32,000 bases of DNA from Candidatus Velamenicoccus archaeovorus (GCF_004102945.1 NZ_CP019384.1:900001-932000); one strand, 5' to 3'. Counted from the stretch's first letter, positions 2,141-31,550 are shown. Numbers and translations are program-made. Notes: a model not told the origin generated them from the sequence alone.

Positions 2141-2623
2141 TCAGCGCAGGCAATAAGGAGGCTGGCGGTCCAGCCACCTGCGGATTTCACGCAGACAGAT
2201 ATTGCCTTCGGGAAAAGTTCCGGCCAGTTCTTTGTGCCTGAAAAGGATGTCGTGCGCCAGCTTCTGTTTTTTTTCGTCTTGGTGAAAGAGGCTGAAGGCC
2301 AGGTCCATCCAGAGGTCGATGTTCTTAGGGTTTTTTTGGATCGCCCTGAGAAAAAGTTTTTCGGCCTGCCCGTATTGTTCGCCGAGGTAGGCGATATAAC
2401 CGGCCAAGACGAGGGTAAATTCCGAGTCGTCGCATGCCAGCCAGTGCTTCGCTTTTTTCGAGAGGAGCCCCAGGAGGCGCGGATGGTCGAAGACCTTTTC
2501 GGCCAGCGCATCCAGCATATAGTTGCCTCTTGTCATGCCGCTGTCGGCCGTGTTCGTCTGGTATCCGGGGCTGACGCGCGCCGTCCTCAAGAAATCTTGT
2601 TTTATCCTGGCGAGTGTCTTCAT
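2141..2623 (-). CDS. Small TPR-repeat protein
   Basis: LAGYIAYLGEQYGQAEKLFLRAIQKNPKNIDLWMDLAFSLF fits the TPR consensus. ATG 2623 forms an ATGA overlap with the stop of the upstream gene. The ORF-track start at 2698 would overlap that gene by 79 nt. Confidence 0.45.
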   Translation of the reverse strand: MKTLARIKQDFLRTARVSPGYQTNTADSGMTRGNYMLDALAEKVFDHPRLLGLLSKKAKHWLACDDSEFTLVLAGYIAYLGEQYGQAEKLFLRAIQKNPKNIDLWMDLAFSLFHQDEKKQKLAHDILFRHKELAGTFPEGNICLREIRRWLDRQPPYCLR

Positions 2624-3642
2624 GGGGACGTTTTGGGTTTTATGGCCGCCTGTGCCACAGAGGCGCAGTAGCGGCAGCTCACACATCGTTGATTGCAATG
2701 CGTGGTGTGTTCGATAAAGTCTTTGGGAAAGGCCTTGTTATCGCAGATGAAAGGCAAGGGGCCCTTGTTGGACGGCGCCAGCGTGAAGAGGTCGCCCTTG
2801 AAAGACCGGGCAAGATACGCGGAGATCTTTGTTTTGAGGAGGCGGCTGTCGTCTTTGCGGTAGGCGATCTTGATGCCGTCCGCCCAGCCGTTTTCCTCGA
2901 AAAAGGCAAGGTCTTCCGGCCTCAGGTATGGCCGCCTGATCTCATCGGCCGGCTCCTGCGTTGCGAATTGGCATCCGTCTTTGAGCATGAAGCCGACGTA
3001 ACATCCCGCCCCTTCCTGCAGCATCGTCCTGGCCGCCTCCATGAGGACGGGCCATTCAGCATGCCTGCCGCCGTAGAAACAGTGAAGATAGCAACCGTGA
3101 TTCGCCAAAAGTTTAATGGTGACGGCAGGCAGATGTTTGCGGCCGGCGCGGATGGCATCCAGGGCGCGTGCGTCACGGTTGCAGGAGACATCCAGTGTGA
3201 ATTCCGTCATTCCCATCTTGACCGCCTCTTTGATTTTATGTTCACTGTCGATGTTCATGTAAACCGAACTCTGGAGGGCGATCTTCGGAAACATCTTGCG
3301 CAAGAACGGGACGATGCACGGATCGGCCAGGGTGATCGACGTGATCCCTCCGGAGTCTTCGAGGGCCTTGACGTAGCGGCCGATGCGTTTGAGGTCGTCA
3401 AAGAAATTGATCCGTTTGTTGAGGAGGAGGTTCCTTTTGATCTTGTGACGGTGGCAGAGGGCGATCAGTTGCCGGATCTCGCCGCTGGAGGCTTTGCGGG
3501 TGTTGAGGTATTGGTTGGAATGGTCGTCTCCCTCGGGTCCGGCAAAATAGATTTCGTAGATCCCCCCTGTCGCGATCGCCCATTTCATGAGCGCCAGGTC
3601 GTTGTTGTAAGGGATGGACAGTTTCAGCTTGGGGTTTTTCAT
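2620..3642 (-). CDS. U32-family (PrtC/UbiU/UbiV-like) TIM-barrel protein with C-terminal CX3CX2CX2C motif
   Basis: MKNPKLKLSIPYNNDLALMKW...IYEIYFAG, ITLADPCIVPF and KLLANHGCYLHCFYGGRH match the strand/helix pattern I associate with peptidase U32 proteins. The C-terminus HCNQRCVSCRYC is Cys-rich. It is a paralogue of 10779-11819. There is an ATGA overlap with the upstream gene. Confidence 0.55.
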   Translation of the reverse strand: MKNPKLKLSIPYNNDLALMKWAIATGGIYEIYFAGPEGDDHSNQYLNTRKASSGEIRQLIALCHRHKIKRNLLLNKRINFFDDLKRIGRYVKALEDSGGITSITLADPCIVPFLRKMFPKIALQSSVYMNIDSEHKIKEAVKMGMTEFTLDVSCNRDARALDAIRAGRKHLPAVTIKLLANHGCYLHCFYGGRHAEWPVLMEAARTMLQEGAGCYVGFMLKDGCQFATQEPADEIRRPYLRPEDLAFFEENGWADGIKIAYRKDDSRLLKTKISAYLARSFKGDLFTLAPSNKGPLPFICDNKAFPKDFIEHTTHCNQRCVSCRYCASVAQAAIKPKTSP

Positions 3643-5747
3643 CGGTCTTGTGTTTTCTTCGGATCATTTCCGATCGGTTTGAATTCCTCGAACCCGTGGT
3701 GCTGCGCATATGTCCGGTAGACGCCTTCGCATCTTTGGTGGTAAGCACAGCGTTGGCAGCGCGGGCCTTTGGTTTTGTCTTTCAGGCGTTCATGTGTCGG
3801 GCTGATCCTGAAGTCATGGCCTTTCTCGGCCGGATGCAGGCAGAGTTGTCTGTGTCCAGACAGGCGCGGGCCTTCCAGCAGGTTGTTGCGCCACGGCCGT
3901 GGCACATGACAATAAGGAAAGCCTTCGAGCACGACTTCCAGATTTTTTTCTTTTCGCGCCCATTGCAGCGCCCTCTTTAGATATGGCGAGACTTGCGTGT
4001 ATGTCGGCACGACCTTGTCGAAGTAGGTCCTGGCAAAGCCGTGGGGGGTCAGAAAGACGAACCAGATGCCTTTGACCCCCAGGCGCTTGAGGAATTTTGC
4101 CGTCTCTTGCAGGTGGCGGTAATTGGCCCTTGTGATCATGATCTTGACGTAAAGGCCGCGAGAGACGGCAAGCGCGTTGCGGATGCCGGCGACGGTTTCC
4201 CAGAAGCTGCCCGGGACATTCGTGGTGACATCGTGCGCCTTGGCTTTGTAATCCTGCAGATGAGTATAGATCACGGGGTGATAAGCGGCAAGCCGCTTGA
4301 CAAATTCTTTTTTAGCCATGAGGCGTCCGTTGGTCTGTATTTGGATCTTGTAGCCCAGCCGGAAGGCGGATTCCATAAGGGAAAAGAAGTCCTCCCTGGC
4401 CGTCGGTTCTCCTCCTGAAAGGACCAGTTGGTCGTAACTGCGGCGATAGGCGGCCAGCGCCTTTGTGAGGATCCCCAGGGATGTGAAGGTCCCGGGTTTG
4501 TTGTCGCCCGTGACACAGAAAATACAACGGTTATTGCAGCGGTAGCCGACCCTGAAGAACAGGGTCCGGGGTTCTTTGTCTAGAATATGGCGATAGATGG
4601 CTTCTACATCCGCGGCGTAAGAATGGATATCCTGGACATGGGCGTGAAAAGGAGGCTTTAAGCGCGCGCGGCCCCTCCGGATCTTCCCGATGATGCGGTT
4701 GAGTTGTGCCAAAGAACTATAGACGAAGGCGTTTCTGCCGGGGATGGTTTTTTCAAGGAGGCTCGGCTGCCTGGGAATAATGACGGGTATCTTTTGGTAG
4801 AGCGATTCCAAAAGCGACATGGGCCCTGTTTCGTCCCAAACCGACGGCACCAGGAGGTAGTCTATTTTTGAATAAAACTTTTCGGGGAGCTCGGCATAAG
4901 GAATATTCTCGATGATTTCGATGTCCGGCCGATTCCCGATATTCTCCAGCTGCCGCAGGTTTTTTTGTGGTGCGCCTTTTGTCCAGAGGCCGAGAAGCAT
5001 GCGGATACCGCCGTTTCGTTTTATCAAATATTCGATCGTGTCCGACCCTTTGAGGGGCGTCCATATCCCCAAAAAGCCGAAGACAGGCTCTTTGTCTTGG
5101 CGTCTTGCGCGCGGCCGCCGCCGCATGTGTACGCCATAAGGCAAGCAAACGATCTTGTCCGGGTCGGCGACGAGTGGGGCCAGTATTTCTTTTTGTGTTT
5201 GCGATGGGCATATGATCGCATCGCACATGTCTATGATTTGGCGGATGTGGCCGCGCCGCGCGGCGTTAAACTCGGAAAGGGGCATATGATTGTATGCCGC
5301 CAATCTTTGTGCATCAGGACATGAACAGGCCTCCGGGTTTGTCTTGCGGCATATCTTGCGGCCGTCATGGAACCTGCCGCCGGCGCAAAACAAAGAGTGG
5401 TCGTGGAGGGTCACGACGATGCGTGCGCCCAGGCTGGCCGCTGTAGTCAAGATGGGCCGCAATTTCGTTCCTGAAAAAAGATGAACATGGACGATGTCGG
5501 GCGGATCCGCCTTCAAGGCGTTGTCCAGGGCCAGGCGCAGGCGTTCGTCGTAGACGATATTGTTGTCCGGCGAACATCGGATATGGATATGCCTCAGGTC
5601 TGTGCGTGAATGCAGAGTCGTTTGGCCGTCGGAATCCACAGAGGTTTCCAGGGAGATATAGGTGATTTGGTGTCTGATTTTCTGGCGGCGGACGAGTTCC
5701 CAGAAACACGGGTGGTAGAGGCTTGAACTGATATGGGCGATGTGCAT
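3639..5747 (-). CDS. Fusion protein: N-terminal GT4-type glycosyltransferase and C-terminal radical SAM domain
   Basis: Residues 1-390 are GT-B/GT4-like, with an E-x7-E motif (WDETGPMSLLES). Residues about 395-702 are rSAM: FFRVGYRCNNRCIFC (CX3CX2C), LSGGEPT and IQTNG. The C-terminus carries FPYC...CQRCAYHQRCEG. The single 702-codon ORF has no internal stop. Confidence 0.8.
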   Translation of the reverse strand: MHIAHISSSLYHPCFWELVRRQKIRHQITYISLETSVDSDGQTTLHSRTDLRHIHIRCSPDNNIVYDERLRLALDNALKADPPDIVHVHLFSGTKLRPILTTAASLGARIVVTLHDHSLFCAGGRFHDGRKICRKTNPEACSCPDAQRLAAYNHMPLSEFNAARRGHIRQIIDMCDAIICPSQTQKEILAPLVADPDKIVCLPYGVHMRRRPRARRQDKEPVFGFLGIWTPLKGSDTIEYLIKRNGGIRMLLGLWTKGAPQKNLRQLENIGNRPDIEIIENIPYAELPEKFYSKIDYLLVPSVWDETGPMSLLESLYQKIPVIIPRQPSLLEKTIPGRNAFVYSSLAQLNRIIGKIRRGRARLKPPFHAHVQDIHSYAADVEAIYRHILDKEPRTLFFRVGYRCNNRCIFCVTGDNKPGTFTSLGILTKALAAYRRSYDQLVLSGGEPTAREDFFSLMESAFRLGYKIQIQTNGRLMAKKEFVKRLAAYHPVIYTHLQDYKAKAHDVTTNVPGSFWETVAGIRNALAVSRGLYVKIMITRANYRHLQETAKFLKRLGVKGIWFVFLTPHGFARTYFDKVVPTYTQVSPYLKRALQWARKEKNLEVVLEGFPYCHVPRPWRNNLLEGPRLSGHRQLCLHPAEKGHDFRISPTHERLKDKTKGPRCQRCAYHQRCEGVYRTYAQHHGFEEFKPIGNDPKKTQDR

Positions 5748-8542: not shown

Positions 8543-9695
8543 GTCCTCGCAGGTCCATGATATGGCGGTATTTGCCGGTTGACGTTTTGGGAACATGGCC
8601 GGAATGGGGACGAATGGTGACCAGATGCGCTATGTGAAGGCGGACGCCGAGTTCTTTGATGAGCGTTGCGCTTGCAGAAAGGTTTTTCTCGGGGATGTGC
8701 AGGGTGATGTTGTCCCTGAAGTTCCGCTTGTTTTTATCGACGACGCAGAAAAAGCGTGGATGTCCCAGGAGCCGCAAGATCGTCTCGGCCACGAGCCGGC
8801 GCGAAACGATCTTGCCTTCGATCAAGAGTGAATCTGCGTCCCGGCCGAGGACGCGGATGTATTTGGCGTTCCCTTTCTTGGTGATGTGGACGCGGTCGCC
8901 CAGGACGTAGCGGATGAAAGGCATGCAGGTGTTTTCCAGGTCTGTGATCACGATGCGCCCTTCTCCCGTCTCCGCCGTCCTGCCGTCTTCGCCCAGGATC
9001 TCAATGTAAAGGCCGTCTTCAAAGAGCCTCATGAATGTATCTTTCGGATCCTCGGCGATCGCGAACCCCGAGAATTCCATGGCGCCATAATGGTCGAAGA
9101 TGCGCGTCCCCGATAACGCTCTCAGGCGGTCTTTGAACCATGGATACAGCGGTTCCCCGTTAAGAATGCAGGATTTCACCGGATGTTTTCGTTTCAAAAC
9201 GGAGAAGATGTCATAAAGCTGGTTGGTGTAGGAGTTGATGAACGCGGGTTTCAGCGATTTGATCAACGCGATCGCCTCTTTTGTTTTTTCCGGGCTCGTG
9301 AGGGATCCCAGGGGGATCACGCCGGCGCCCAGGGCCCTGAAGGCCTGTTCCATGATGCGGCCGCCGCTGTTGAGTTCATACGAACAGAGGTTCAGGCACA
9401 GGTCGCCCGGCTTCATCCCGCAGGATTTGTAAATTTTGACGAGACGGCGCAGGTGCGTCCGATAACAATCCTTTGGATGCAGGATGTACATTTGTTTTCC
9501 CGAAGAGCCGCTCGTCGCCGTTACGTTGAAGGCCTCTCCTTCAGGGGGAAATTGACGGATATCGTCGCGCATCATGAGCGGCAATTTCAGGAATTCACCG
9601 CATGACTTCAATGGGAGCCGCACCGCCCGGTATGGTTGGAGGTGCGCGAAGCATGCCAAGAGATGGTTGATTTTTTTCAGGGTGACAATGTCCAT
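8526..9695 (-). CDS. Adenylate-forming enzyme, phenylacetate-CoA ligase (PaaK/CapK/F390 synthetase)-like
   Basis: MMRDDIRQFPP...VTATSGSSGKQ matches the T-S-G-[ST]-[ST]-G-K AMP-binding loop in the PaaK-type N-terminal context. Length is about 390 aa. The start is uncertain: ATG 9695 or GTG 9725. Confidence 0.7.
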   Translation of the reverse strand: MDIVTLKKINHLLACFAHLQPYRAVRLPLKSCGEFLKLPLMMRDDIRQFPPEGEAFNVTATSGSSGKQMYILHPKDCYRTHLRRLVKIYKSCGMKPGDLCLNLCSYELNSGGRIMEQAFRALGAGVIPLGSLTSPEKTKEAIALIKSLKPAFINSYTNQLYDIFSVLKRKHPVKSCILNGEPLYPWFKDRLRALSGTRIFDHYGAMEFSGFAIAEDPKDTFMRLFEDGLYIEILGEDGRTAETGEGRIVITDLENTCMPFIRYVLGDRVHITKKGNAKYIRVLGRDADSLLIEGKIVSRRLVAETILRLLGHPRFFCVVDKNKRNFRDNITLHIPEKNLSASATLIKELGVRLHIAHLVTIRPHSGHVPKTSTGKYRHIMDLRGHATRH

Positions 9696-10798
9696 GCGTA
9701 TTGTTTTGAATAGTCTCGATGGCACCGGGAGGCGCCGCGTTTATAGAGAAGCCGGAGCGACTGCAGCGCGGCATTTTCCTGTAGAAGAAAACACCCCCGG
9801 CATAATGGGTCGTACATTTTTTTCTGGAAAAATCCGGATGCCGCTTTGAGCCGTACGCGGTGATAGCGTGTCGACATCCACAGCTCCGCCAGGCCCTTGT
9901 CGTGGACGTTGCCTATCTTGACGCTTTTCTGCGTTGAACAACAGGCGGTCACGTCGCCCCGCTCTGTCAGAAACGTCGCAAACCATCCCATGTGGCACGG
10001 TCCTGGACTTCGGCAATCCGCGCCGGCCGGCAGAAATTTTCCCGTTTCGGCATAATGGGCCGAAAGGTTGTTTTTGACGCGGCCCAGGGTTCCCTTCCGG
10101 TGGGCGGCTAAGAGTAATTTTTCCGCTTTTTTCATGAGGGGCGGCGTCAGGGCCAAAGGACTTGTCCTGTGTTCGACATGCTCGCATTTGATCCGGAGTT
10201 CGTCGATCTTGACGCGCCGGGCAAGATCGATGACGGCCGGCAGGTTGTGATAGTTCAAGGCGTGCAGGACGAAGTTGAGCGAAGTCCTGGCCGACCGTGA
10301 CCTGACGCGGCCCAGAAGCTTCATATTTTTTATCACCATATCAAAATCGCTCAGATTTTGCGGCCGGTGGATCCTGAAAAAATCTTTTGCGTTTGTTGCC
10401 GAGAGGCTGAATTTCACGGCGTGGATGCGATGGATGGTTTTCAACAGTTTGTGCGGAAACAATCCGTTCGTCACCAGCGTGACCGCCAGTCCTTTCCTGC
10501 CGGCATGGTGGACGATGCTTTCGAAATCGGGGTGCAGCGTTGGTTCGCCTTTGGCCGAAAAGCAGACATGGCTGACGTTGAGTTTTTGACAATCATCAAA
10601 GACCCGGCCCAGGGTTTCCGTCTCCAGCCGCGTTTCTTTCGCCGGAGCCCTGGCGGCCGTTCCGTGGTGCACGCAGAAGAGGCAGTTGAGGTTGCAGGTG
10701 TTGTTGAGGTGGCAAAACAGGATCTTGGGGCCGCTGAAGATCCTGTGCCTGAGGGCCCCCATCAATCTCAAGGCATCGTTATGCAAGGTGTCGGCCAT
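9677..10798 (-). CDS. Radical SAM enzyme with SPASM/twitch-type C-terminal motif (paralogue family member 1 of 4)
   Basis: FCHLNNTCNLNCLFC is the rSAM box. CHMGWFATFLTERGDVTACC is a CX12GX4C motif. IGNVHDKGLAELW and a terminal CRGC follow. Confidence 0.85.
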   Translation of the reverse strand: MADTLHNDALRLMGALRHRIFSGPKILFCHLNNTCNLNCLFCVHHGTAARAPAKETRLETETLGRVFDDCQKLNVSHVCFSAKGEPTLHPDFESIVHHAGRKGLAVTLVTNGLFPHKLLKTIHRIHAVKFSLSATNAKDFFRIHRPQNLSDFDMVIKNMKLLGRVRSRSARTSLNFVLHALNYHNLPAVIDLARRVKIDELRIKCEHVEHRTSPLALTPPLMKKAEKLLLAAHRKGTLGRVKNNLSAHYAETGKFLPAGADCRSPGPCHMGWFATFLTERGDVTACCSTQKSVKIGNVHDKGLAELWMSTRYHRVRLKAASGFFQKKMYDPLCRGCFLLQENAALQSLRLLYKRGASRCHRDYSKQYAWTLSP

Positions 10799-11819
10799 AG
10801 TTTTTCTTTTTGAGGGCTTTCACGGCGACAAGCCGGCAATAATCGCACCCTTCGCATCTCATGTCGCAACTCAGCAGTTTTTTCGCAAATGTGTCCGGGA
10901 TGCTCTTGTTGTCGCAGATGAAGGGGATGGCGCCTTTGTTGGGGGGCGTCAATTCAAAAAGGTCTCCGTCAAAAGAGCGCTCGAAATAAGCTTTCAACTT
11001 TTTGCGCAGGACAGGAGTACGATCCATGCGATAGGCAATTTTGATCACGTCGGCCAATCCCCTTTTTTCATAATAAGTCAGGTCTTCCGGCCGGATGAAC
11101 GGCCGTTTGATCTCGTCTGTGACATCTTCTTTTTTATAGACGCAGTTTTTGACATCGATGAGATCTCCCAGAATATACCTTTTTTGAGGCGGGCGTTGCG
11201 CCGCCGTCTGCTGTTCAAGCATCTCTTTCAGCAGCGGCCAGCTGGAATGACGCATGGAGTAGAAGCAATTCATATAGCAGCCGTGGTTGGCCAGAAGTTT
11301 TACGGAGAAATTTTTGAGTTTGTTTTTATAATCCCTGATCTTTTCCAGTTCTTCTCCTTTGCGGTTGGTGGAGACGTCCAGGCAGAAATCCGTCACTCCC
11401 ATTTTGAGGGCTTCTTTGATCTTCTGGAGGCTGTCGATGTTCATGAATACGGACGTCTGGAGACGGATCCGCGGGAAGGCCTTTTTGAGAAATGGGACAA
11501 TGGCGGGGTCCCCGACCGTGATGGACGTCAGCCCTTCTGTCTTGTCGAGGGATCCGATGTAATGAAAGACGCTTTTGAGGTTATCGGTGAACGCGATCCC
11601 CTTGTTCATCAAAAGATTGCTTTTGACGTTATGTTTGCGGCACAGCGCCATCAATTCAAGGATCTCCTCTTCCTGAAATTTGTTCTGGTTCTGGTAGGGG
11701 CTGGAGTGGTCATTGCGGCCGGCGCCGGCGAAATAGACTTCCGCCGCCTGGCCTGTTTTAAAGGCCCATGCCATGAGGGTCAGGTCTCCGTTGTATGGGA
11801 TGGAGAATTTAAGCTTCAT
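10779..11819 (-). CDS. U32-family (UbiU/UbiV-like) TIM-barrel protein, paralogue of 2620-3642
   Basis: MKLKFSIPYNGDLTLMAW...AEVYFAG, ITVGDPAIVPF and KLLANHGCYMNCFYS. The C-terminus SCDMRCEGCDYC is a CX3CX2CX2C motif. A strong AGGAGG lies 5 nt upstream of ATG 11819. Its 3' end overlaps the next rSAM gene by 20 nt. Confidence 0.55.
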   Translation of the reverse strand: MKLKFSIPYNGDLTLMAWAFKTGQAAEVYFAGAGRNDHSSPYQNQNKFQEEEILELMALCRKHNVKSNLLMNKGIAFTDNLKSVFHYIGSLDKTEGLTSITVGDPAIVPFLKKAFPRIRLQTSVFMNIDSLQKIKEALKMGVTDFCLDVSTNRKGEELEKIRDYKNKLKNFSVKLLANHGCYMNCFYSMRHSSWPLLKEMLEQQTAAQRPPQKRYILGDLIDVKNCVYKKEDVTDEIKRPFIRPEDLTYYEKRGLADVIKIAYRMDRTPVLRKKLKAYFERSFDGDLFELTPPNKGAIPFICDNKSIPDTFAKKLLSCDMRCEGCDYCRLVAVKALKKKNYGRHLA

Positions 11820-11828
11820 GAAGACCTC

Positions 11829-12683
11829 CTATAATACCTCAAAATAGAATTGGGTGCGTGGTCTTTTGTCCATGTCGATGCAGATATATGTGATGCGTAT
11901 GGCGTTGGCGACAGGAAGCAGGGCTTGATGTAACCTTTGGGCGGCCTGCGTTTTGTCGAAACGCCTTATCAGGGCCGTGACATCGCTGCTGTCGAATGGG
12001 AAATCCGTGCGTACGGACCGGCTTCCTTTCTGCTGATACCTGATGGCCAGCATGACTTTTTGCGGCAACCATCCTATTTTCCGCCACCGTTCATAGGTTT
12101 TCAAGGCCCCTTTCTTTAGAACAGAGGCGCAGGCCGTTGCCAGCGAATCCGTGGGGAAAGGCCCATAATAGATTTTCAGGCCCTTCCTCCCTGTTTCATA
12201 AAGGTCGACGGCCGACATCCTGATGTTTTGAAAACGCCTGATGTCCGATGCGATACAGGCCGTATCCAGGTGCAGGCGAGAGGCGATGGCCGTCGCGTGC
12301 TTGGCGGGATCGGATGGATCCTGTGCGCGGTGATAATAATTATAAAGCTTGTATCGCGTCTCCCGCAGGAGCGGGCGGTCTTTGTAGGATGCCACCCCGA
12401 TCCCGAAACAGTTGTCTCTGTTGTTGCGAAACATATAACGCCTGGCTTCGGTCTCAATCCCCAGCAGGCGAAAAATGCGGCAGGCGTCGGTTTTCTTCAT
12501 GCAGGTCAGGGCGATCCGTGAGACGCCTGCGGCGCAACGGGAGAGCGATTCACTGGAGACCTCAAAGCTCTTCTCGTCCCCGTGCCTTTGTTTGATGCTA
12601 AGATAGGCCTTCGTGGCGCGAAAGAGCAAAGGGTCCTCCCGCAGTAAGAACTCAAGCAGTTTTATGTCGTGGAGCGTCGTCAC
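11829..12683 (-). CDS. Hypothetical protein; possible ABBA-fold aromatic prenyltransferase-like protein
   Basis: The GTG at 12683 forms a GTGA overlap with the upstream stop. The ORF-track start at 12872 would overlap the upstream gene by 193 nt. Five beta-hairpin-like segments recur about every 55 aa. Motifs GLKIYYGPFPTD, RYKLYNYYH and TQFYFEV recall NphB/CloQ-type strands. Confidence 0.35.
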   Translation of the reverse strand: MTTLHDIKLLEFLLREDPLLFRATKAYLSIKQRHGDEKSFEVSSESLSRCAAGVSRIALTCMKKTDACRIFRLLGIETEARRYMFRNNRDNCFGIGVASYKDRPLLRETRYKLYNYYHRAQDPSDPAKHATAIASRLHLDTACIASDIRRFQNIRMSAVDLYETGRKGLKIYYGPFPTDSLATACASVLKKGALKTYERWRKIGWLPQKVMLAIRYQQKGSRSVRTDFPFDSSDVTALIRRFDKTQAAQRLHQALLPVANAIRITYICIDMDKRPRTQFYFEVL

Positions 12684-13777
12684 GGCTGTGTCCGTTTTTT
12701 TAGGCCGCAGATGACGCAGGCCTTCCAAAACCTGTTCGCGAAGTCCATGTCCATCGCGGGTTGCGGCGGCGTTTTCAATATCTGCGCGAGGCGGCCGTCT
12801 TTGACATTTCCGTAAAACGTGGGGTCGTCTGCCGCAGGCAGGCCGAAGAGGATCCGCGTGGGATTGAGGCATCCGAAAATGTCCCCGTTGCAGTCGATGA
12901 AGAGATTATTTTTCCATGCCTCGCACGTCATGAGGCCGTTGAGACGTTTGACGACTTTGGAATTCGTGTCGTTTGGCATGGTGTTGCGATGAAGCGGCCC
13001 CATCAGGGTGCGGGCATTAAGGATCTGTTGCGTTTTTTTCGTGAAATCCAGGACATTGGTGGTTCTGACAAAGAACGGGAGTCTTGCAGCGATGCGGAAT
13101 TCGTTGATAAGGCGCCGCAACTGCTCTTTGTCGGGCGCCAAAAAATGGTTGTGAGGGGTCAGGAGCATATGGTGGAAATGGATGGAAAGATCGGCGGGCC
13201 GGCCCATCCGTTCCAGCAGGATGCGGTGGAATTTCCTCACGAAGCTTATGGCTTTGGCGGCCGTGTTTTTGGTGATGACATAGTTGATTTTGAATCTAAC
13301 GGCGTATTTCTTTCTGTGGGCGAGATCAAGGATGTCCTTAAGGGAATCAAGGGCGTTTTTAAAGGCGTCCCTCCTTTTGATTCCATGAATATCCCGGAAT
13401 TCCCTGGCGTCCGTCGCATTCAGATTGATCGTCAGCAGATTTAGATACGGCAGGATTTTCTTGATGCGTTTGCCTTCCTGGAGGTTTGTTAATACCTCCA
13501 CGGCGTAACCCCATCGGTAAGCTGAAGCGATGATCTTTTCGAAGTCCGGATGCAGGGCCGGTTCTCCCTGCGAGCCGATTTCTAAAAACCCAAAGCCGTG
13601 TCTTTTGGCTTCTTTCAGGATATCGAGCCAGGCCTCGGCTGGCAGATCGGCCGGTTGCCGGTCGTGAAGATAAACGCAAAACACACAACGGTAGGGGCAC
13701 GCGTTTGTCAAGGAAATGAGCAGTCTTTTGTCTCTTCCGTTTATCCCGGGCGTCTTTGGATGTTTCATGGCATTCAT
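12680..13777 (-). CDS. Radical SAM enzyme with SPASM/twitch-type motif
   Basis: LLISLTNACPYRCVFC is the rSAM box. CEAWKNNLFIDCNGDIFGC is a CX12GX4C motif. A terminal CVIC follows. Confidence 0.85.
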   Translation of the reverse strand: MNAMKHPKTPGINGRDKRLLISLTNACPYRCVFCVYLHDRQPADLPAEAWLDILKEAKRHGFGFLEIGSQGEPALHPDFEKIIASAYRWGYAVEVLTNLQEGKRIKKILPYLNLLTINLNATDAREFRDIHGIKRRDAFKNALDSLKDILDLAHRKKYAVRFKINYVITKNTAAKAISFVRKFHRILLERMGRPADLSIHFHHMLLTPHNHFLAPDKEQLRRLINEFRIAARLPFFVRTTNVLDFTKKTQQILNARTLMGPLHRNTMPNDTNSKVVKRLNGLMTCEAWKNNLFIDCNGDIFGCLNPTRILFGLPAADDPTFYGNVKDGRLAQILKTPPQPAMDMDFANRFWKACVICGLKKRTQP

Positions 13778-27830: not shown

Positions 27831-28103
27831 TTAATATGAACCATGGCTTGAATGTGAATAATGGCTGACGTGGTCGATCTTGACGCAACGCGTCGAGTAT
27901 GGCGTGATCCCGAGATTGTTGGCATGCGAGCTGTGGTTGGTGTGTCCGGCAATCAGGTTGGCGGAGAAAGCGCTCAGGATGCCGAGGGCAGAAATCGTCC
28001 CCAATCCGATCTTGAGGATTTTTTCCTTGGAAACAAAACCGGATTCATCTTTGATAAATTCATGCAGGGTTTTTTCGATTTTTCTCTTTTTTTTGGGCCC
28101 CAT
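27831..28103 (-). CDS. His-Xaa-Ser repeat protein (HxsA-like candidate precursor/substrate)
   Basis: A 90-codon ORF with a strong AAGGAG 5 nt upstream of ATG 28103. The C-terminus HVS-HYS-HSS-HGS-Y has four tandem H-x-S units (nt 27837-27872), and an upstream HSS unit is also present. The N-terminus is Lys-rich and is followed by a hydrophobic segment. The gene lies directly downstream of an rSAM/SPASM gene. Confidence 0.7.
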   Translation of the reverse strand: MGPKKKRKIEKTLHEFIKDESGFVSKEKILKIGLGTISALGILSAFSANLIAGHTNHSSHANNLGITPYSTRCVKIDHVSHYSHSSHGSY

Positions 28104-28157
28104 GCGCTCTCCTTAATTAATGCCGCCAAAAAGATGTTAAGCCTGTTTGCCGGGTAA

Positions 28158-28204
28158 CCTGTTGGCCGGTATGTCTGTATACGGGTTGCCCTGTGGGCCG
28201 GTAT
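28158..28204. repeat. Direct repeat CCTGTKGGCCGGTATG x2 (32-bp period) within a cluster of RRCCGGT motifs
   Basis: Positions 28158-28173 and 28190-28205 are identical at 15 of 16 positions. Further GGCCGGTT, AGCCGGTT and AACCGGTT copies lie at 28205-28245. All of this sits in the 154-bp gap between the rSAM/SPASM gene and the HxS-repeat gene. Confidence 0.6.
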
Positions 28205-28257
28205 GGCCGGTTAGCCGGTTTACTCGCTCACCCGCTAACCGGTTCACGAATCCTCCG

Positions 28258-29694
28258 CTATGCCAGCCAGGAAAGAAAGACTTCTTTGTTCCTGGCATCT
28301 TCCAGTATTCTATCAAAAATATATCTGATTTGGAAAGTAAAAATTTTATGAAGTCCCGATGCCTTGATCTTGGGCACGAGACTGTTGTTTTGCGCGTAAT
28401 TCAGGACTGGGCATGTTCCCAGCCACGGCAGGAAAGCCGTATTGTAGTCCCACAGATCCATCAGGGAAGCCTCGCAGAGGCAGAAGACATTGTTGCTCTT
28501 CATCACCGTCTGGTAATCGTCCTTGAGGATATTGCCGAGCCGGAACATGCTCTCGCCGACCATGCGCGCCTCGTCACAAGGATAGATGTCGCCGTTCGGC
28601 ATATACGCCAGGACGGCCCTGCCCGCCCCGCAGGGGCTCATCATGTCGACGTAGCCCGGATTTTCCTTTTTGAAGATCTTCGACAGGATGACGGCGCAGA
28701 GGCGTTCCTGGATCTTGAGGCCTTTCTTGTTTAATTCCAGGATATGATCCATCGCCTGCGTCCAGAAGGCGAGGAATTCTTCGGCCGTATATCCGATCGC
28801 GTCCCATTGATCTTTGGCAAGGCCGAGCCTTGACAAAGGGCGCAGCGCGATCCTTTCGCTCCCCAGCGAGATGTATTCGTCGATGATCTTTTCGGGTTCC
28901 TGCAGACTGCGGCGCGTGATCGTGCATAAAAGATTGACGCTGTGCGGCAGGCCGTGTTGTTTGTAGATCTTTTTCGTCCTTGCGACGGCGTCCTTGACGA
29001 TATCATAGGCGTCCTTGCCGGATCCGATGACCCGGTTATGGTTATGCACGGAGGCCGGACCGTCGAAAGAGAAACAGATGCCGACATTGTGTTTGGCGAG
29101 ATAGGAGATTTTTTTGTCGTCCAGGAGGGTGCCGTTGGTCACCAGGCTGATGGCGAGGTGCTTGTTGCCCGTATTGATGCGTTGGGCGTTCTCGGTGATG
29201 AATTTGATGATGTCCCAGTTGAGGAGCGGTTCGCCCCCCTGGAATTCGATATTGGCATAAGGATTCTGGGTGTCGAAAACATATTTCAGGACCCTTGAGG
29301 CGACTTCGATCGTCATATCCTGCGGCGCGTTGTTTTTTGTCTGACAATAGAGGCAATTCATGTTGCAGCGTGTCGTGACGACCGCGATGTGCAGGGATGT
29401 GTCATTGAAGAGATGGCTGTGGAGGCGTCTGTACGTTTCTATCAGGCTTTTTATGGAGTTTTCGTCTGCGATGATGCCTGCTTTGAGCAGCCGCTTGAAG
29501 AGGCCTGTTTGTTCCCCTAGGTCATTGCTTTCGAGCCGAACAAATTCCTTGCGATCCAGCATGTCCCAGGAACCGAAGAGATTGCTGACAAGATAATGGT
29601 TTTTGATGCGTTCGATGTTGTAAGGCAGGATAGCCCAGGTGTTTTTTTCCGTTTTTTTCATTTCACTCCTTGATGATTCCGCTTTGGGCGGCAT
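28258..29694 (-). CDS. Radical SAM/SPASM maturase, HxsB-like by context
   Basis: VVTTRCNMNCLYC is the rSAM box, followed by FQGGEPLL. CGAGRAVLAYMPNGDIYPC is a CX12GX4C motif, followed by further Cys (FCLCE, GTCP). There is a pre-rSAM N-terminal domain of about 100 aa. An alternative start at ATG 29661 has AAGGAG 4 nt upstream. Confidence 0.75.
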   Translation of the reverse strand: MPPKAESSRSEMKKTEKNTWAILPYNIERIKNHYLVSNLFGSWDMLDRKEFVRLESNDLGEQTGLFKRLLKAGIIADENSIKSLIETYRRLHSHLFNDTSLHIAVVTTRCNMNCLYCQTKNNAPQDMTIEVASRVLKYVFDTQNPYANIEFQGGEPLLNWDIIKFITENAQRINTGNKHLAISLVTNGTLLDDKKISYLAKHNVGICFSFDGPASVHNHNRVIGSGKDAYDIVKDAVARTKKIYKQHGLPHSVNLLCTITRRSLQEPEKIIDEYISLGSERIALRPLSRLGLAKDQWDAIGYTAEEFLAFWTQAMDHILELNKKGLKIQERLCAVILSKIFKKENPGYVDMMSPCGAGRAVLAYMPNGDIYPCDEARMVGESMFRLGNILKDDYQTVMKSNNVFCLCEASLMDLWDYNTAFLPWLGTCPVLNYAQNNSLVPKIKASGLHKIFTFQIRYIFDRILEDARNKEVFLSWLA

Positions 29695-29834
29695 GAGATC
29701 CTTTTTGTTTCTCTTTCTTGTTTCTAGTTTAGTGTCTCTAACGCTTCTTTATCCTGTATCAGCCCTGAACCAGACTGAGCGCTCCATGAAGAACATTTCG
29801 CAGTCGATTCAGGACGGTGCAGGATCTCGCTGTG

Positions 29835-29877
29835 CACAAAGAAAATAGAAGCCGCCGGATCCTGCCGGCGGAGCTTC
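29835..29877 (-). terminator. Rho-independent terminator
   Basis: The minus strand reads GAAG-ct-CCGCCGG caggat CCGGCGG-CTTC (11-bp GC-rich stem, 2-nt bulge, 6-nt loop) followed by TATTTTCTTTGTG. It lies about 50 nt after the stop at 29927. Confidence 0.7.
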
Positions 29878-29926
29878 ACATTTCGCAAGAACAATAGAAA
29901 ATCGAAAATAGACCGCAGACACCATA

Positions 29927-30259
29927 TTAGAGATGGCGCCGCGCGGCAAAGGTGAACGGAGAAAAATATCTTCTCCAGGCATTCTCTGTGGACCGGAATT
30001 GATTGGAACCGGCAAAGAAATCCACGATCGCCTCGCGCAAACGCGCCAGCTCTTTGAGGCGGGCCTTGCCGGAGACATTGTCCAGAGTCAAGTCGATCAG
30101 CTCAAGAGACCGTTCGAATGCCATTTGGCTGTAGGCCGGATTTTGTTTTTTTTTCCAGCTCAAGGCCCTCTCCACCTCGCTTCCGATATGGGCCATTTGT
30201 TCCAAAAACGGCAGGCGGCCCCATCGCCCCTGCGCAAGTTCTTTGTGATGCAGGTTCAT
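29927..30259 (-). CDS. Hypothetical helical protein (partner of the DUF5674-like gene)
   Basis: A 110-codon ORF with an ATGA overlap on the upstream gene. LPFLEQMAHIGSEVERALSW is vaguely MazG/all-alpha NTP-PPase-like. I cannot assign a family with confidence. Confidence 0.5.
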   Translation of the reverse strand: MNLHHKELAQGRWGRLPFLEQMAHIGSEVERALSWKKKQNPAYSQMAFERSLELIDLTLDNVSGKARLKELARLREAIVDFFAGSNQFRSTENAWRRYFSPFTFAARRHL

Positions 30260-30597
30260 TGTTGGACCCTTTTTCTGACGACGGCGATGATTTTTTTGCG
30301 CATGCCTTCATCCTCAACCCCGAGGCTTCTATTGTTTTGAGAAGGACGCATGTTGATCATGGAATCAAATTCTATATGGTCGTCTCCTGGAATGTCGGGA
30401 TAAAGATTGATTCCCCAGAGGCTATTCTGTTTTGACCCCGCATCCAAAAGCATCGCTTCCAGGTCGGAATGAAGCTCGGCATCGACGGCAAGAAGTTCCT
30501 TGTCGACATCGACGACGGCTTTGACGAGGTTTCCGAACCTGCGGACTGCCATGCCTTTCAATTCATCTAAGGTTAATTTTTCGGAGATGATTTTCAT
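30256..30597 (-). CDS. DUF5674-like protein
   Basis: From ATG 30597: MKIISEKLTLDELKGMAVRRFGNLVKAVVDVDKELLAVDAELHSDLEAMLLDAGSKQNSLWGINLYP...FDSMINMRPSQNNRS. This matches my recollection of the DUF5674 family consensus. The ORF-track start at 30672 would overlap the upstream rSAM gene. Confidence 0.55.
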   Translation of the reverse strand: MKIISEKLTLDELKGMAVRRFGNLVKAVVDVDKELLAVDAELHSDLEAMLLDAGSKQNSLWGINLYPDIPGDDHIEFDSMINMRPSQNNRSLGVEDEGMRKKIIAVVRKRVQQ

Positions 30598-30608
30598 TCG
30601 AGCTGTTC

Positions 30609-31550
30609 CTAAACGGGTCGAAATTCCCTGGATCCGAAGAGCCGGGGATATTCGATCCACGGGCCTTCGCATTGATTAAACCAGCGGCACGGCGCGCACG
30701 TCGGGAATTTCGTTTTGGCCTGGAATTTACGGACGATATCGAAATTGTCGACCGTTTGGTGGATTTCCTTGCATTGAGCCGGTGGAATAAAAAATTCGGA
30801 AGCGCAGCGTTCATAAGGCGCCAGGAGACAAAACGGCACGGCCTCCACCATGACGCGCCGTCCAGCCCGCAGGCCGATCTCAAGTCCCTTCTTGATGAAC
30901 GGCGCCGCCGCGCCGGCTTTCGGGACGATTTTTTTGTAGTAAATCATGGCGTTGCCTTGGATATGGACAAAAGCGAACTGGAACTGGATGACGCCTAGCT
31001 TGACCAGCAGTTCTGCCAGTTCGGGCAAAAAACGGTAATTCTGTTTTGTCACGACCGTGTTGGTGAGCGTTTTGATCCCCAGGCGGCACATGTTGTGGAT
31101 CCCCAGAACGGTCTGACGCCAGCTTCCCGGAGAACGCGTGAGGCCGTCGTGGATGGCCGCCGTCGGGCCGTGGAGCGCAGGCGCGAACGTCGTCATCCCC
31201 GCGCGTATCATCTGTTTGCAGAAATTCTCGTCCGCGAATTTCCGGCCGTTGGTCTGTATCTGGATTTCGGTGAAACCTGTCGCTTTGGCAAAGGCGACAA
31301 TTTCTTCGATGTCCGGCCTTATGCTGACTTCTCCTCCTGTCAGGACCACATCGGTTTTTCCTTCGCGGAAGGATTCGACGAGCTCGCGCTTGATCTGGCC
31401 GGTTGTCTTCTCGCCGAAAGGCCTCTTGTCCGCAACGACACAGAACAGGCAGTCGTTGGAACATTTGTACCCTACCTTGAGGTCGACCCGGCGGATCACA
31501 GGAACTTCATCTACGAAGTCTTGTTGAGGTAAAACAGGTAGTTTGCCCAT
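30609..31550 (-). CDS. Radical SAM protein (same subfamily as the rSAM domain of the GT fusion; HxsC-position candidate)
   Basis: DLKVGYKCSNDCLFC, LTGGEVS and IQIQTNG. The C-terminus carries VPFC...CAPCRWFNQCEG...EFRPV, which parallels FPYC...CQRCAYHQRCEG...EFKPI of 3639-5747. Confidence 0.8.
   Translation of the reverse strand: MGKLPVLPQQDFVDEVPVIRRVDLKVGYKCSNDCLFCVVADKRPFGEKTTGQIKRELVESFREGKTDVVLTGGEVSIRPDIEEIVAFAKATGFTEIQIQTNGRKFADENFCKQMIRAGMTTFAPALHGPTAAIHDGLTRSPGSWRQTVLGIHNMCRLGIKTLTNTVVTKQNYRFLPELAELLVKLGVIQFQFAFVHIQGNAMIYYKKIVPKAGAAAPFIKKGLEIGLRAGRRVMVEAVPFCLLAPYERCASEFFIPPAQCKEIHQTVDNFDIVRKFQAKTKFPTCAPCRWFNQCEGPWIEYPRLFGSREFRPV

Follow-up and report, generated by a model that had tools for sequence, protein, structure and literature searches.

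Two paralogous genes in a 32,000-nucleotide stretch of the genome of Candidatus Velamenicoccus archaeovorus (GCF_004102945.1 NZ_CP019384.1:900001-932000, hereafter the window), gene A at 10779-11819 and gene B at 2620-3642, both on the minus strand, appear to encode members of a divergent branch of the U32 superfamily that would carry two [4Fe-4S] clusters, work with radical S-adenosylmethionine (radical SAM) partners of their own and catalyse an O2-independent oxidation. We put the probability of this reading as a whole at about 0.5, with parts that differ considerably in strength: U32 membership is very probable, the Fe-S nature of the proteins likely and the partnership with radical SAM enzymes in one clade probable, while hydroxylation as the actual chemistry is tentative and rather doubtful. 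The host belongs to the Omnitrophota and has been described in published work as an ultramicrobial predator.

A and B are 50% identical across 339 residues (E 2e-125, BLASTP) and have the segments SIPYN, YFAG, IT.xDPxIVPFL, LLANHGCY.xCFY and PFICDNK in common. A preliminary description of this DNA had named them as paralogues with such shared segments, both ending in C-x3-C-x2-C-x2-C and both overlapping a radical SAM gene, and on all of these points our results agree with it. The start codon of B overlaps the TGA of an upstream fusion of a GT4 glycosyltransferase and a radical SAM protein in an ATGA at 3639-3642, and the last 20 nt at the 3' end of A (10779-10798) overlap the first ATG of a downstream radical SAM/SPASM open reading frame (ORF). 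This ORF has two candidate starts, the ATG at 10798 that gives the 20-nt overlap and an in-frame ATG at 10776 that would leave a 2-nt gap, and aligning it to its paralogue did not settle the choice, but A and the downstream gene are tightly coupled whichever ATG is used. Of the 21 family positions with at least 90% conservation, B matches A in 20, the exception being Phe for Tyr250, and since both keep the conserved positions apart from this one replacement, both look active.

The assignment to the U32 superfamily is secure because several lines agree despite a borderline direct Pfam score. Searched with their own sequences, A and B reach 21.2 and 19.6 bits against PF01136 (Peptidase_U32), with about 60 residues matched, and narrowly miss the gathering score of 22.4. 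No specific NCBIfam model recognised either protein, the sole match being a weak one to TrhP (E 0.0026), and a single-sequence search of the PDB with A gave nothing relevant. In contrast, a precomputed PF01136 match exists for 37 of 42 close homologues, and more distant relatives exceed the Pfam cut-off, with scores from 27.8 bits (a Methanocaldococcus homologue) to 53.7 bits (P0041); for comparison, E. coli UbiV itself scores 38.3. The only significant match of the family profile among PDB sequences was MK0906 (PDB 5D88; E 2.2e-6), the only solved U32 structure found here. The AlphaFold2 (AF2) model of A (pLDDT 91.7) is a (beta-alpha)8 barrel, for which Foldseek again placed 5D88 first (E 4e-9, target TM-score 0.64), followed by generic TIM barrels with E values of 2e-5 or more. 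A and 5D88 are 12% identical, and the PDB chain of 247-254 residues has no counterpart of the C-terminal cysteine block described below. Profile alignment with hhalign was decisive only after the family alignment had been enlarged and compared with three canonical proteins: 173 family sequences against E. coli TrhP, RlhA and UbiU gave a probability of 99.3% (E 1.2e-19, 276 columns), whereas 36 sequences against UbiU alone gave a weak 39.6%. Among the E. coli U32 proteins, the family hidden Markov model (HMM) scored best against TrhP (29.4 bits) and RlhA (28.3 bits). It is thus very probable that A and B are genuine but divergent U32 proteins of a distinct branch, and the family assignment made in the preliminary description stands as homology, with the qualification that the two proteins themselves fall below the Pfam threshold.

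Conservation, measured over 166 full-length representatives of 50%-identity clusters, singles out 21 positions conserved at 90% or more, among them eight residues that could bind metal (C181, C185, H191, C226, C318, C322, C325 and C328, each 96-99% conserved). At this level of conservation, the four-cysteine motif at the C terminus is not a chance feature of two sequences. The canonical Fe-S motif of U32 proteins is CX6CX15CX3/4C (PMC6747719, PMC11574389); the ligands of UbiU are C169, C176, C193 and C232, as shown experimentally (PMC6747719), and those of UbiV are C39, C180, C193 and C197 in a CXnCX12CX3C motif (PMC6747719, PMC11574389). C181 aligns with UbiU C169 and TrhP C170, and C185 aligns with UbiU C176 and TrhP C177 after a 3-residue deletion, which leaves a spacing of 3 between the first two cysteines compared to 6 in UbiU. 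C226 shares a column with UbiU C232, which has no equivalent ligand in TrhP or RlhA, although this is a low-confidence stretch of the alignment. The segment that holds the canonical third and fourth cysteines, including UbiU C193, is deleted in the A/B family, and the UbiV motif is absent. Of the four UbiU ligand positions, three have an aligned cysteine, with that of C226 tentative. Other barrel residues fit a U32 active site. K260 and R264, the counterparts of the Lys and Arg of the U32 KIEGR motif of TrhP, RlhA and UbiU, are 100% conserved, as is N72, while S123 is 99% conserved; N72 and S123 align to the U32 Asn and Ser of strands 3 and 5, and D246 is a further invariant polar residue at an active-site position. 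We presume that C181, C185, C226 and H191 form the site of a catalytic cluster, and from the ligand pattern it is likely that both A and B are Fe-S proteins.

The C-terminal block follows the part that aligns with the U32 core. Of 190 family members, 140 space its cysteines 3-2-2 and 23 space them 4-2-2, with the first spacing ranging from 3 to 5, and an aromatic residue precedes the last cysteine in 137 of 148 strict 3-2-2 sequences. As the preliminary description had suspected for UbiU and UbiV, the block has no equivalent there, nor in TrhP or RlhA, and judged from the alignments, it is specific to this family. About 10 full-length relatives have lost it whole but retain the core CX3C..H, and because it is lost as a unit, it appears to be a separate module. 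These relatives have gained no compensating cysteine, with the exception of P0041, and the idea that the C-terminal cysteines complete the core cluster is weakened accordingly.

The coupling to radical SAM genes is the other main line of evidence. Twelve ORFs in the window have both a PF04055 match and CX3CX2C, and an HMM built from them, which may miss distant radical SAM proteins, was run on the fetched loci after these had been split by family-HMM score into an Omnitrophota/Elusimicrobia-type clade (at least 300 bits) and another clade (below 300 bits). A radical SAM gene lies within 150 bp of 16 of 22 family genes in the first clade and of 1 of 60 in the second, with overall densities of 2.84 and 0.06 radical SAM ORFs per 10 kb, respectively. 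The adjacent genes are of recurring types, namely, HxsC-like, HxsB/anSME/PapB-like (similar to 7508, 20657 and 28258 in the window) and, for A, SPASM proteins similar to 9677. Natural fusions exist as well, including a 1,333-aa protein with U32-like, HxsC-like, HxsB-like and HxsC-like parts in that order (P0043) and an 826-aa protein that joins a U32-like, a B12-binding and a radical SAM domain (P0161). Adjacency, overlaps, recurring radical SAM types and these Rosetta-stone fusions together make a functional partnership in the Omnitrophota/Elusimicrobia clade probable, and the coupling seen at first in the window alone is thereby borne out. Separately, we note a metagenome contig of the Omnitrophota (L086, 1-17807) in which a lone U32-like gene sits within 13 consecutive co-directional radical SAM genes, one of which encodes a B12-binding domain and another two radical SAM domains.

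The mechanism that we propose would use both cysteine sites. A site-differentiated catalytic [4Fe-4S] cluster at the mouth of the barrel would be held by C181, C185 and C226, with H191 as a possible fourth ligand or with an open iron, and the C-terminal block would bind a second, four-Cys [4Fe-4S] cluster that serves as a relay. Each paralogue would act with its own radical SAM partner, whose physical association we infer, on a shared substrate rather than as an A/B heterodimer. The reaction would be an O2-independent two-electron oxidation, by analogy with UbiU/UbiV, TrhP and RlhA. In its likeliest version, it would be the ring hydroxylation of an aromatic or heteroaromatic intermediate that is handled by the ABBA prenyltransferase and the aryl-acid-ligase-like enzymes of the cluster. 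Characterised U32 members act in hydroxylation pathways (PMC6747719, PMC10990095), and direct hydroxylase activity of UbiU/V, TrhP and RlhA has not been shown in vitro (PMC10990095). Hydroxylase chemistry for A and B is possible by this analogy, but we consider it more doubtful than the other elements of the proposal.

Several observations weigh against the proposal. None of 190 family members matches the canonical CX6CX15CX3/4C motif, and none matches the PROSITE U32 signature, which we take to be E-x-F-x2-G-[SA]-[LIVM]-C-x4-G-x-C-x-[LIVM]-S and used for matching in this form. TrhP and RlhA match both the signature and the four-Cys motif, and UbiU matches the signature. The placement of C226, on which the third ligand of the catalytic cluster depends, suffers from the alignment quality mentioned above, and the limited reach of the radical SAM HMM bears on all counts of neighbours. 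A and B are coupled to different types of radical SAM gene. Family members of gut Clostridia, Lentisphaerae and Methanocaldococcus have no radical SAM neighbours and stand near sugar-catabolic genes, ferredoxin-like proteins or glycosyltransferases instead. Even P0016, a close Omnitrophota relative with 46% identity to A, has a housekeeping setting in which no radical SAM gene occurs within 10 kb (L085, 9422-13310), at odds with a strict radical SAM partnership. Since the second clade does without radical SAM neighbours, the link is clade specific, and the chemistry of the family need not involve aromatic rings. The surroundings of P0016 include a tRNA synthetase gene and, upstream, a gene for a TPR protein, while an AIRS-domain gene overlaps its stop codon by 4 nt and is followed by tsaE and tsaD.

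The association with radical SAM enzymes could also mean that the U32-like protein does not itself act on the pathway substrate but is an electron-transfer or cluster-carrying subunit that supplies its neighbours with electrons or takes electrons from them. Fusions join it to up to three radical SAM domains or to a B12-dependent type, it associates with several radical SAM types rather than one, and it is found as a single copy within arrays of up to 13 such genes. Moreover, its C-terminal block ends in CX2CX2C, the classic cubane-binding spacing of ferredoxins, and its neighbours in the gut clade are other Fe-S (Fer4-like) proteins. However, a 340-aa TIM barrel with invariant N72, S123, K260, R264 and D246 looks enzymatic, some relatives that have no C-terminal block keep the barrel site, and some members have no radical SAM gene nearby. 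We find a pure relay function unlikely for these reasons.

Another reading would make the seven-Cys U32-like protein an integral third subunit of HxsB/HxsC-type radical SAM machines, in which the radical SAM enzyme would generate a substrate radical, and the U32 clusters would then oxidise it, with prephenate or water as the source of the oxygen that they deliver. HxsC-like and HxsB/anSME-like proteins, which resemble the HxsB/HxsC pair of the His-Xaa-Ser (HXS) system, are the commonest neighbours or fusion partners of the U32-like proteins. B is coupled to a GT4-HxsC-like fusion, and the window also encodes a genuine HxsB and a repeat peptide similar to HxsA. HXS has recently been reported to defend against phages by preventing the entry of their DNA, and the maturation of HxsA includes N-terminal processing; as described, the system consists of HxsA to HxsD and has no U32 component (PMC13128918). 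The HxsC-like partners fall far below the NCBIfam cut-offs (the GT4-radical SAM fusion reaches 133 and 111 bits against the HxsC4 and HxsC-like models, below threshold), and a His-Xaa-Ser repeat peptide is present in only 1 other locus. The third-subunit arrangement is a speculative extension that we regard as unlikely. If it is true, peptides, proteins or prenylated aromatics would join the known substrates of O2-independent hydroxylation, and U32 oxidases and radical SAM chemistry would be linked mechanistically for the first time.

Coming back to the barrel site of the proposed oxidase, three conserved cysteines and a histidine in place of four cysteines would also suit an Fe-S (de)hydratase or a reductive dehydroxylase whose substrate is a sugar or an intermediate derived from one, where the open iron of a three-Cys cluster would be the Lewis acid. 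Such an enzyme could be of the aconitase type or IspG/IspH-like, with the second cluster delivering electrons. Sugar genes are found around family members in three unrelated settings (the cluster in the window, the gut operons and the glycosyltransferase genes upstream of the Methanocaldococcus member). This context is circumstantial, the immediate flanks of A are a prenyltransferase-fold gene and a radical SAM gene rather than sugar enzymes, and we know of no characterised U32 member that is a (de)hydratase or dehydroxylase. Overall, this chemistry is improbable.

It had been suggested that A and B form a UbiU/UbiV-like heterodimer that hydroxylates the pathway intermediate without O2; each subunit would then hold one [4Fe-4S] cluster. 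UbiU and UbiV are a proven heterodimer (PMC6747719), A and B belong to the same superfamily, and a single gene cluster contains both paralogues, whose conserved residues are intact. Further likenesses are the U32 barrel itself and the presence of a prenyltransferase in the pathway context. The pairing is not supported by the rest of our data. The genes are not neighbours but lie 7 kb from one another, and each is translationally coupled to a different radical SAM gene. In a neighbour-joining tree, calculated without support values, A and B fall in different small groups that both lie within one Omnitrophota subclade, and since they are also 50% identical, the duplication is recent, unlike the deep split of UbiU and UbiV. 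Loci with two copies are limited to the closest relatives (L004 and L005), another lineage has an independent duplication (P0009 and P0024, both on one contig), and most loci rich in radical SAM genes have a single copy; the duplication that gave A and B is, as far as these comparisons indicate, lineage specific. Pfam scans of the window proteins found no SCP2/UbiT-like domain, the prenyltransferase is of the soluble ABBA type and not UbiA, and H191 and the C-terminal four-Cys block are additions of the A/B family. UbiT, UbiU and UbiV have been reported from alpha-, beta- and gammaproteobacteria (PMC6747719), in contrast to the Omnitrophota host of A and B. We consider the heterodimer quite improbable and prefer two separate U32-like proteins that each have a radical SAM partner.

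TrhP (YegQ), which acts in the formation of 5-hydroxyuridine (ho5U) in tRNA, and RlhA (YdcP), which does so for 5-hydroxycytidine (ho5C) in 23S rRNA, are the best E. coli relatives by sequence and share the barrel residues; UbiU and UbiV are the E. coli proteins YhbU and YhbV, which act in the O2-independent hydroxylation of ubiquinone. TrhP (453 aa) and RlhA (653 aa) extend well past the U32 core, where A and B have the cysteine block, and they carry the signature and the CX6CX15CX3C motif that A and B lack. There is no RNA-modification context at A or B, although the relative in L085 adjoins tsaE/tsaD.

A true peptidase that cuts the leader from a radical SAM-modified peptide or protein of the cluster would agree with the historical family name, with neighbouring radical SAM proteins that are similar to peptide maturases (PapB, PqqE and MftC), with the peptide prenyltransferases KgpF and PagF among the best structural matches of the prenyltransferase and with a His-Xaa-Ser precursor and HxsB in the same window, as the maturation of HxsA has N-terminal processing (PMC13128918). 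Characterised members have instead been placed in hydroxylation pathways (PMC6747719, PMC10990095). The seven invariant cysteines and the histidine point to metal clusters, and no precursor-peptide gene was found next to A or B. Nor do we know of any catalytic protease residues in U32 proteins, and a peptidase is very improbable. That the C-terminal CX3CX2C binds a SAM-cleaving cluster, which would make A and B unconventional radical SAM-type enzymes on a U32 barrel, can practically be dismissed: C318-x3-C322-x2-C325 has the radical SAM spacing and both folds are TIM barrels (PMC11574389), but neither protein has a PF04055 match, the motif is C-terminal instead of following strand 1, the aromatic residue precedes the fourth cysteine and not the third, which leaves CX2CX2C with one additional cysteine as the invariant unit, the first spacing varies from 3 to 5, and the block is dispensable in some relatives.

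A search with the family profile of 1.84 billion representatives (clusters at 50% identity) yielded 754 proteins at E values of 1e-30 or less, 1,679 at 1e-10 or less and 3,741 at 1e-3 or less, and 372 loci in GTDB species genomes encode a relative. The hosts include Omnitrophota, Elusimicrobia, many gut and rumen Clostridia, Lentisphaerae/Victivallales and Methanocaldococcus, and the proteins are named "hypothetical" or "U32 family peptidase" in the databases. In the literature on U32 proteins and radical SAM, on radical SAM clusters of Omnitrophota and on recent U32 work, we found no description of the subfamily, its cysteine pattern, the radical SAM fusions or the cluster, all of which appear to be undescribed, while the parent U32 superfamily is already known. 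To our knowledge, U32 proteins are the only enzymes tied to hydroxylation with oxygen from an organic donor (prephenate), and neither the catalytic mechanism nor the role of the cluster nor an in vitro assay has yet been established for them. The branch is large and has a different ligand set, probably a second cluster and clear genetic partners in the form of radical SAM enzymes and fusions, and these partners are concrete handles for finding substrates and dissecting the roles of the clusters. The analysis also draws attention to loci dense in radical SAM genes in ultra-small uncultured bacteria, with 12 per 32 kb here and 13 in a row in a relative. Should the proteins turn out to be ordinary electron carriers or a dehydratase, many database entries would still gain a useful re-annotation.

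The second clade has its own contexts. In gut and rumen Clostridia and Lentisphaerae (L027-L083; e.g., L070, 8715-15984, and L045, 8973-14278), the family member heads a conserved, apparently uncharacterised operon in 41 loci, followed by two to four paralogous Fer4-like proteins of about 300-360 aa with a CX2CX2CX3CP motif and often by a small cupin. A divergent AraC-type regulator is found upstream in 31 loci, and the vicinity includes GH16, DUF5696, an enolase-superfamily enzyme, SDR and AraC/LacI-type regulators. In complete genomes of Methanocaldococcus (L059, 4872-13378, and L061), the family member has 332 aa, ends in CNKLCSKCNFC and has no radical SAM gene nearby. Genes for a glycosyltransferase and a large membrane protein lie upstream, a DUF5402 gene lies downstream, and a 539-aa downstream gene is presumably SepRS (O-phosphoseryl-tRNA synthetase), which we recognised by eye only and no tool confirmed.

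Nearly every gene of the window is on the minus strand. Read from 24060 to 52, the cluster around A and B (Table 1) begins with a DegT aminotransferase, two GT28 glycosyltransferases, many radical SAM genes and a PaaK-like ligase and continues with an Asn-synthase-like gene, the GT4-radical SAM fusion, the two U32-like genes and genes for phosphoglycerate kinase and triosephosphate isomerase. The sugar-type genes by Pfam are GT4, two GT28, the DegT aminotransferase and DUF2334. The radical SAM genes form paralogue groups, which are 9677/13790/14905/17280 (SPASM), 7508/20657 and the GT4 fusion with 30609 (HxsC-like), and many resemble peptide maturases, with PapB-, PqqE- and MftC-like matches.

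Table 1. Positions of genes A and B, their motifs and their immediate neighbours in the window
Feature	Position	Strand	Evidence or remark
U32-like paralogue A, 346 aa, seven-Cys subfamily	10779-11819	-	ORF, Pfam, AF2, Foldseek, hhalign
U32-like paralogue B, 340 aa	2620-3642	-	50% identity to A
A, C-terminal CX3CX2CX2C block, CDMRCEGCDYC (C318/C322/C325/C328, residues 318-328)	10836-10868	-	
B, C-terminal CX3CX2CX2C block, CNQRCVSCRYC (C316/C320/C323/C326, residues 316-326)	2665-2697	-	
A, core-site CX3C (C181 and C185), after barrel strand 7	11265-11279	-	Alignment and 96-99% conservation
A, C226	11142-11144	-	Aligned to UbiU C232 in a low-confidence stretch
A, IKIAYR on strand 8 (K260, R264), counterpart of U32 KIEGR	11028-11045	-	Aligned to TrhP/RlhA/UbiU
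Radical SAM/SPASM gene downstream of A, translationally coupled	9677-10798	-	Pfam Radical_SAM and SPASM; CNLNCLFC motif
GT4 glycosyltransferase fused to HxsC-like radical SAM, upstream of B, translationally coupled	3639-5747	-	Pfam; ATGA overlap
ABBA prenyltransferase-fold gene, 284 aa, GTG start, upstream of A	11829-12683	-	Homologue length, AF2, Foldseek
Small TPR-like gene, 131 aa, downstream of B	2141-2536	-	Weak sub-threshold TPR Pfam matches

The gene upstream of A had been described as aromatic-prenyltransferase-like, and this is confirmed at the level of the fold. The ORF as called (11829-12872, 347 aa) is too long, with an Arg/Pro-rich false N terminus; homologues have 284 aa. Translation probably begins at the GTG at 12683, which forms a GTGA overlap with the stop codon of the radical SAM gene 12680-13777. 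The gene ends 9 nt before A. Its AF2 model (pLDDT 88.4) has five alpha-alpha-beta-beta repeats, and the top 50 Foldseek matches are all ABBA prenyltransferases, led by KgpF, CdpNPT, CymD and PagF. The protein has no Pfam match, and its named relatives are from Omnitrophota only. Together with the PaaK-like ligase, the predicted ABBA fold gives some support to an aromatic substrate, either a small molecule or the side chain of a peptide.

L004 and L005 share with the window the conserved small TPR-like gene that lies downstream of B, BLAST found TPR neighbours only in close relatives, and a fusion of a U32-like protein with TPR exists (P0123). An overlapping 149-aa ORF (2062-2511) was rejected as a gene, since it is basic and of low complexity and looks like a wrong-frame artefact, with the TPR-like gene in the other frame.

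An HXS module is located at 27831-31550 on the minus strand, with no HxsD identified in it. A general link between HxsA and U32-like genes was considered and rejected, as His-Xaa-Ser repeat peptides were found only in the window and in L021. Within the module, the radical SAM protein 28258-29694 passes the NCBIfam cut-off for HxsB (386 versus 370), while the radical SAM protein 30609-31550 is HxsC4/HxsC-like and below threshold. The 90-aa ORF 27831-28103 ends in HVSHYSHSSHGSY and gives a full-length match to HxsA3 of 39 bits, which is below threshold. Between HxsB and the HxsC-like gene (29927-30672, minus strand) are encoded a 138-aa DUF5674 protein (120 bits) and a 110-aa protein that matches no family.

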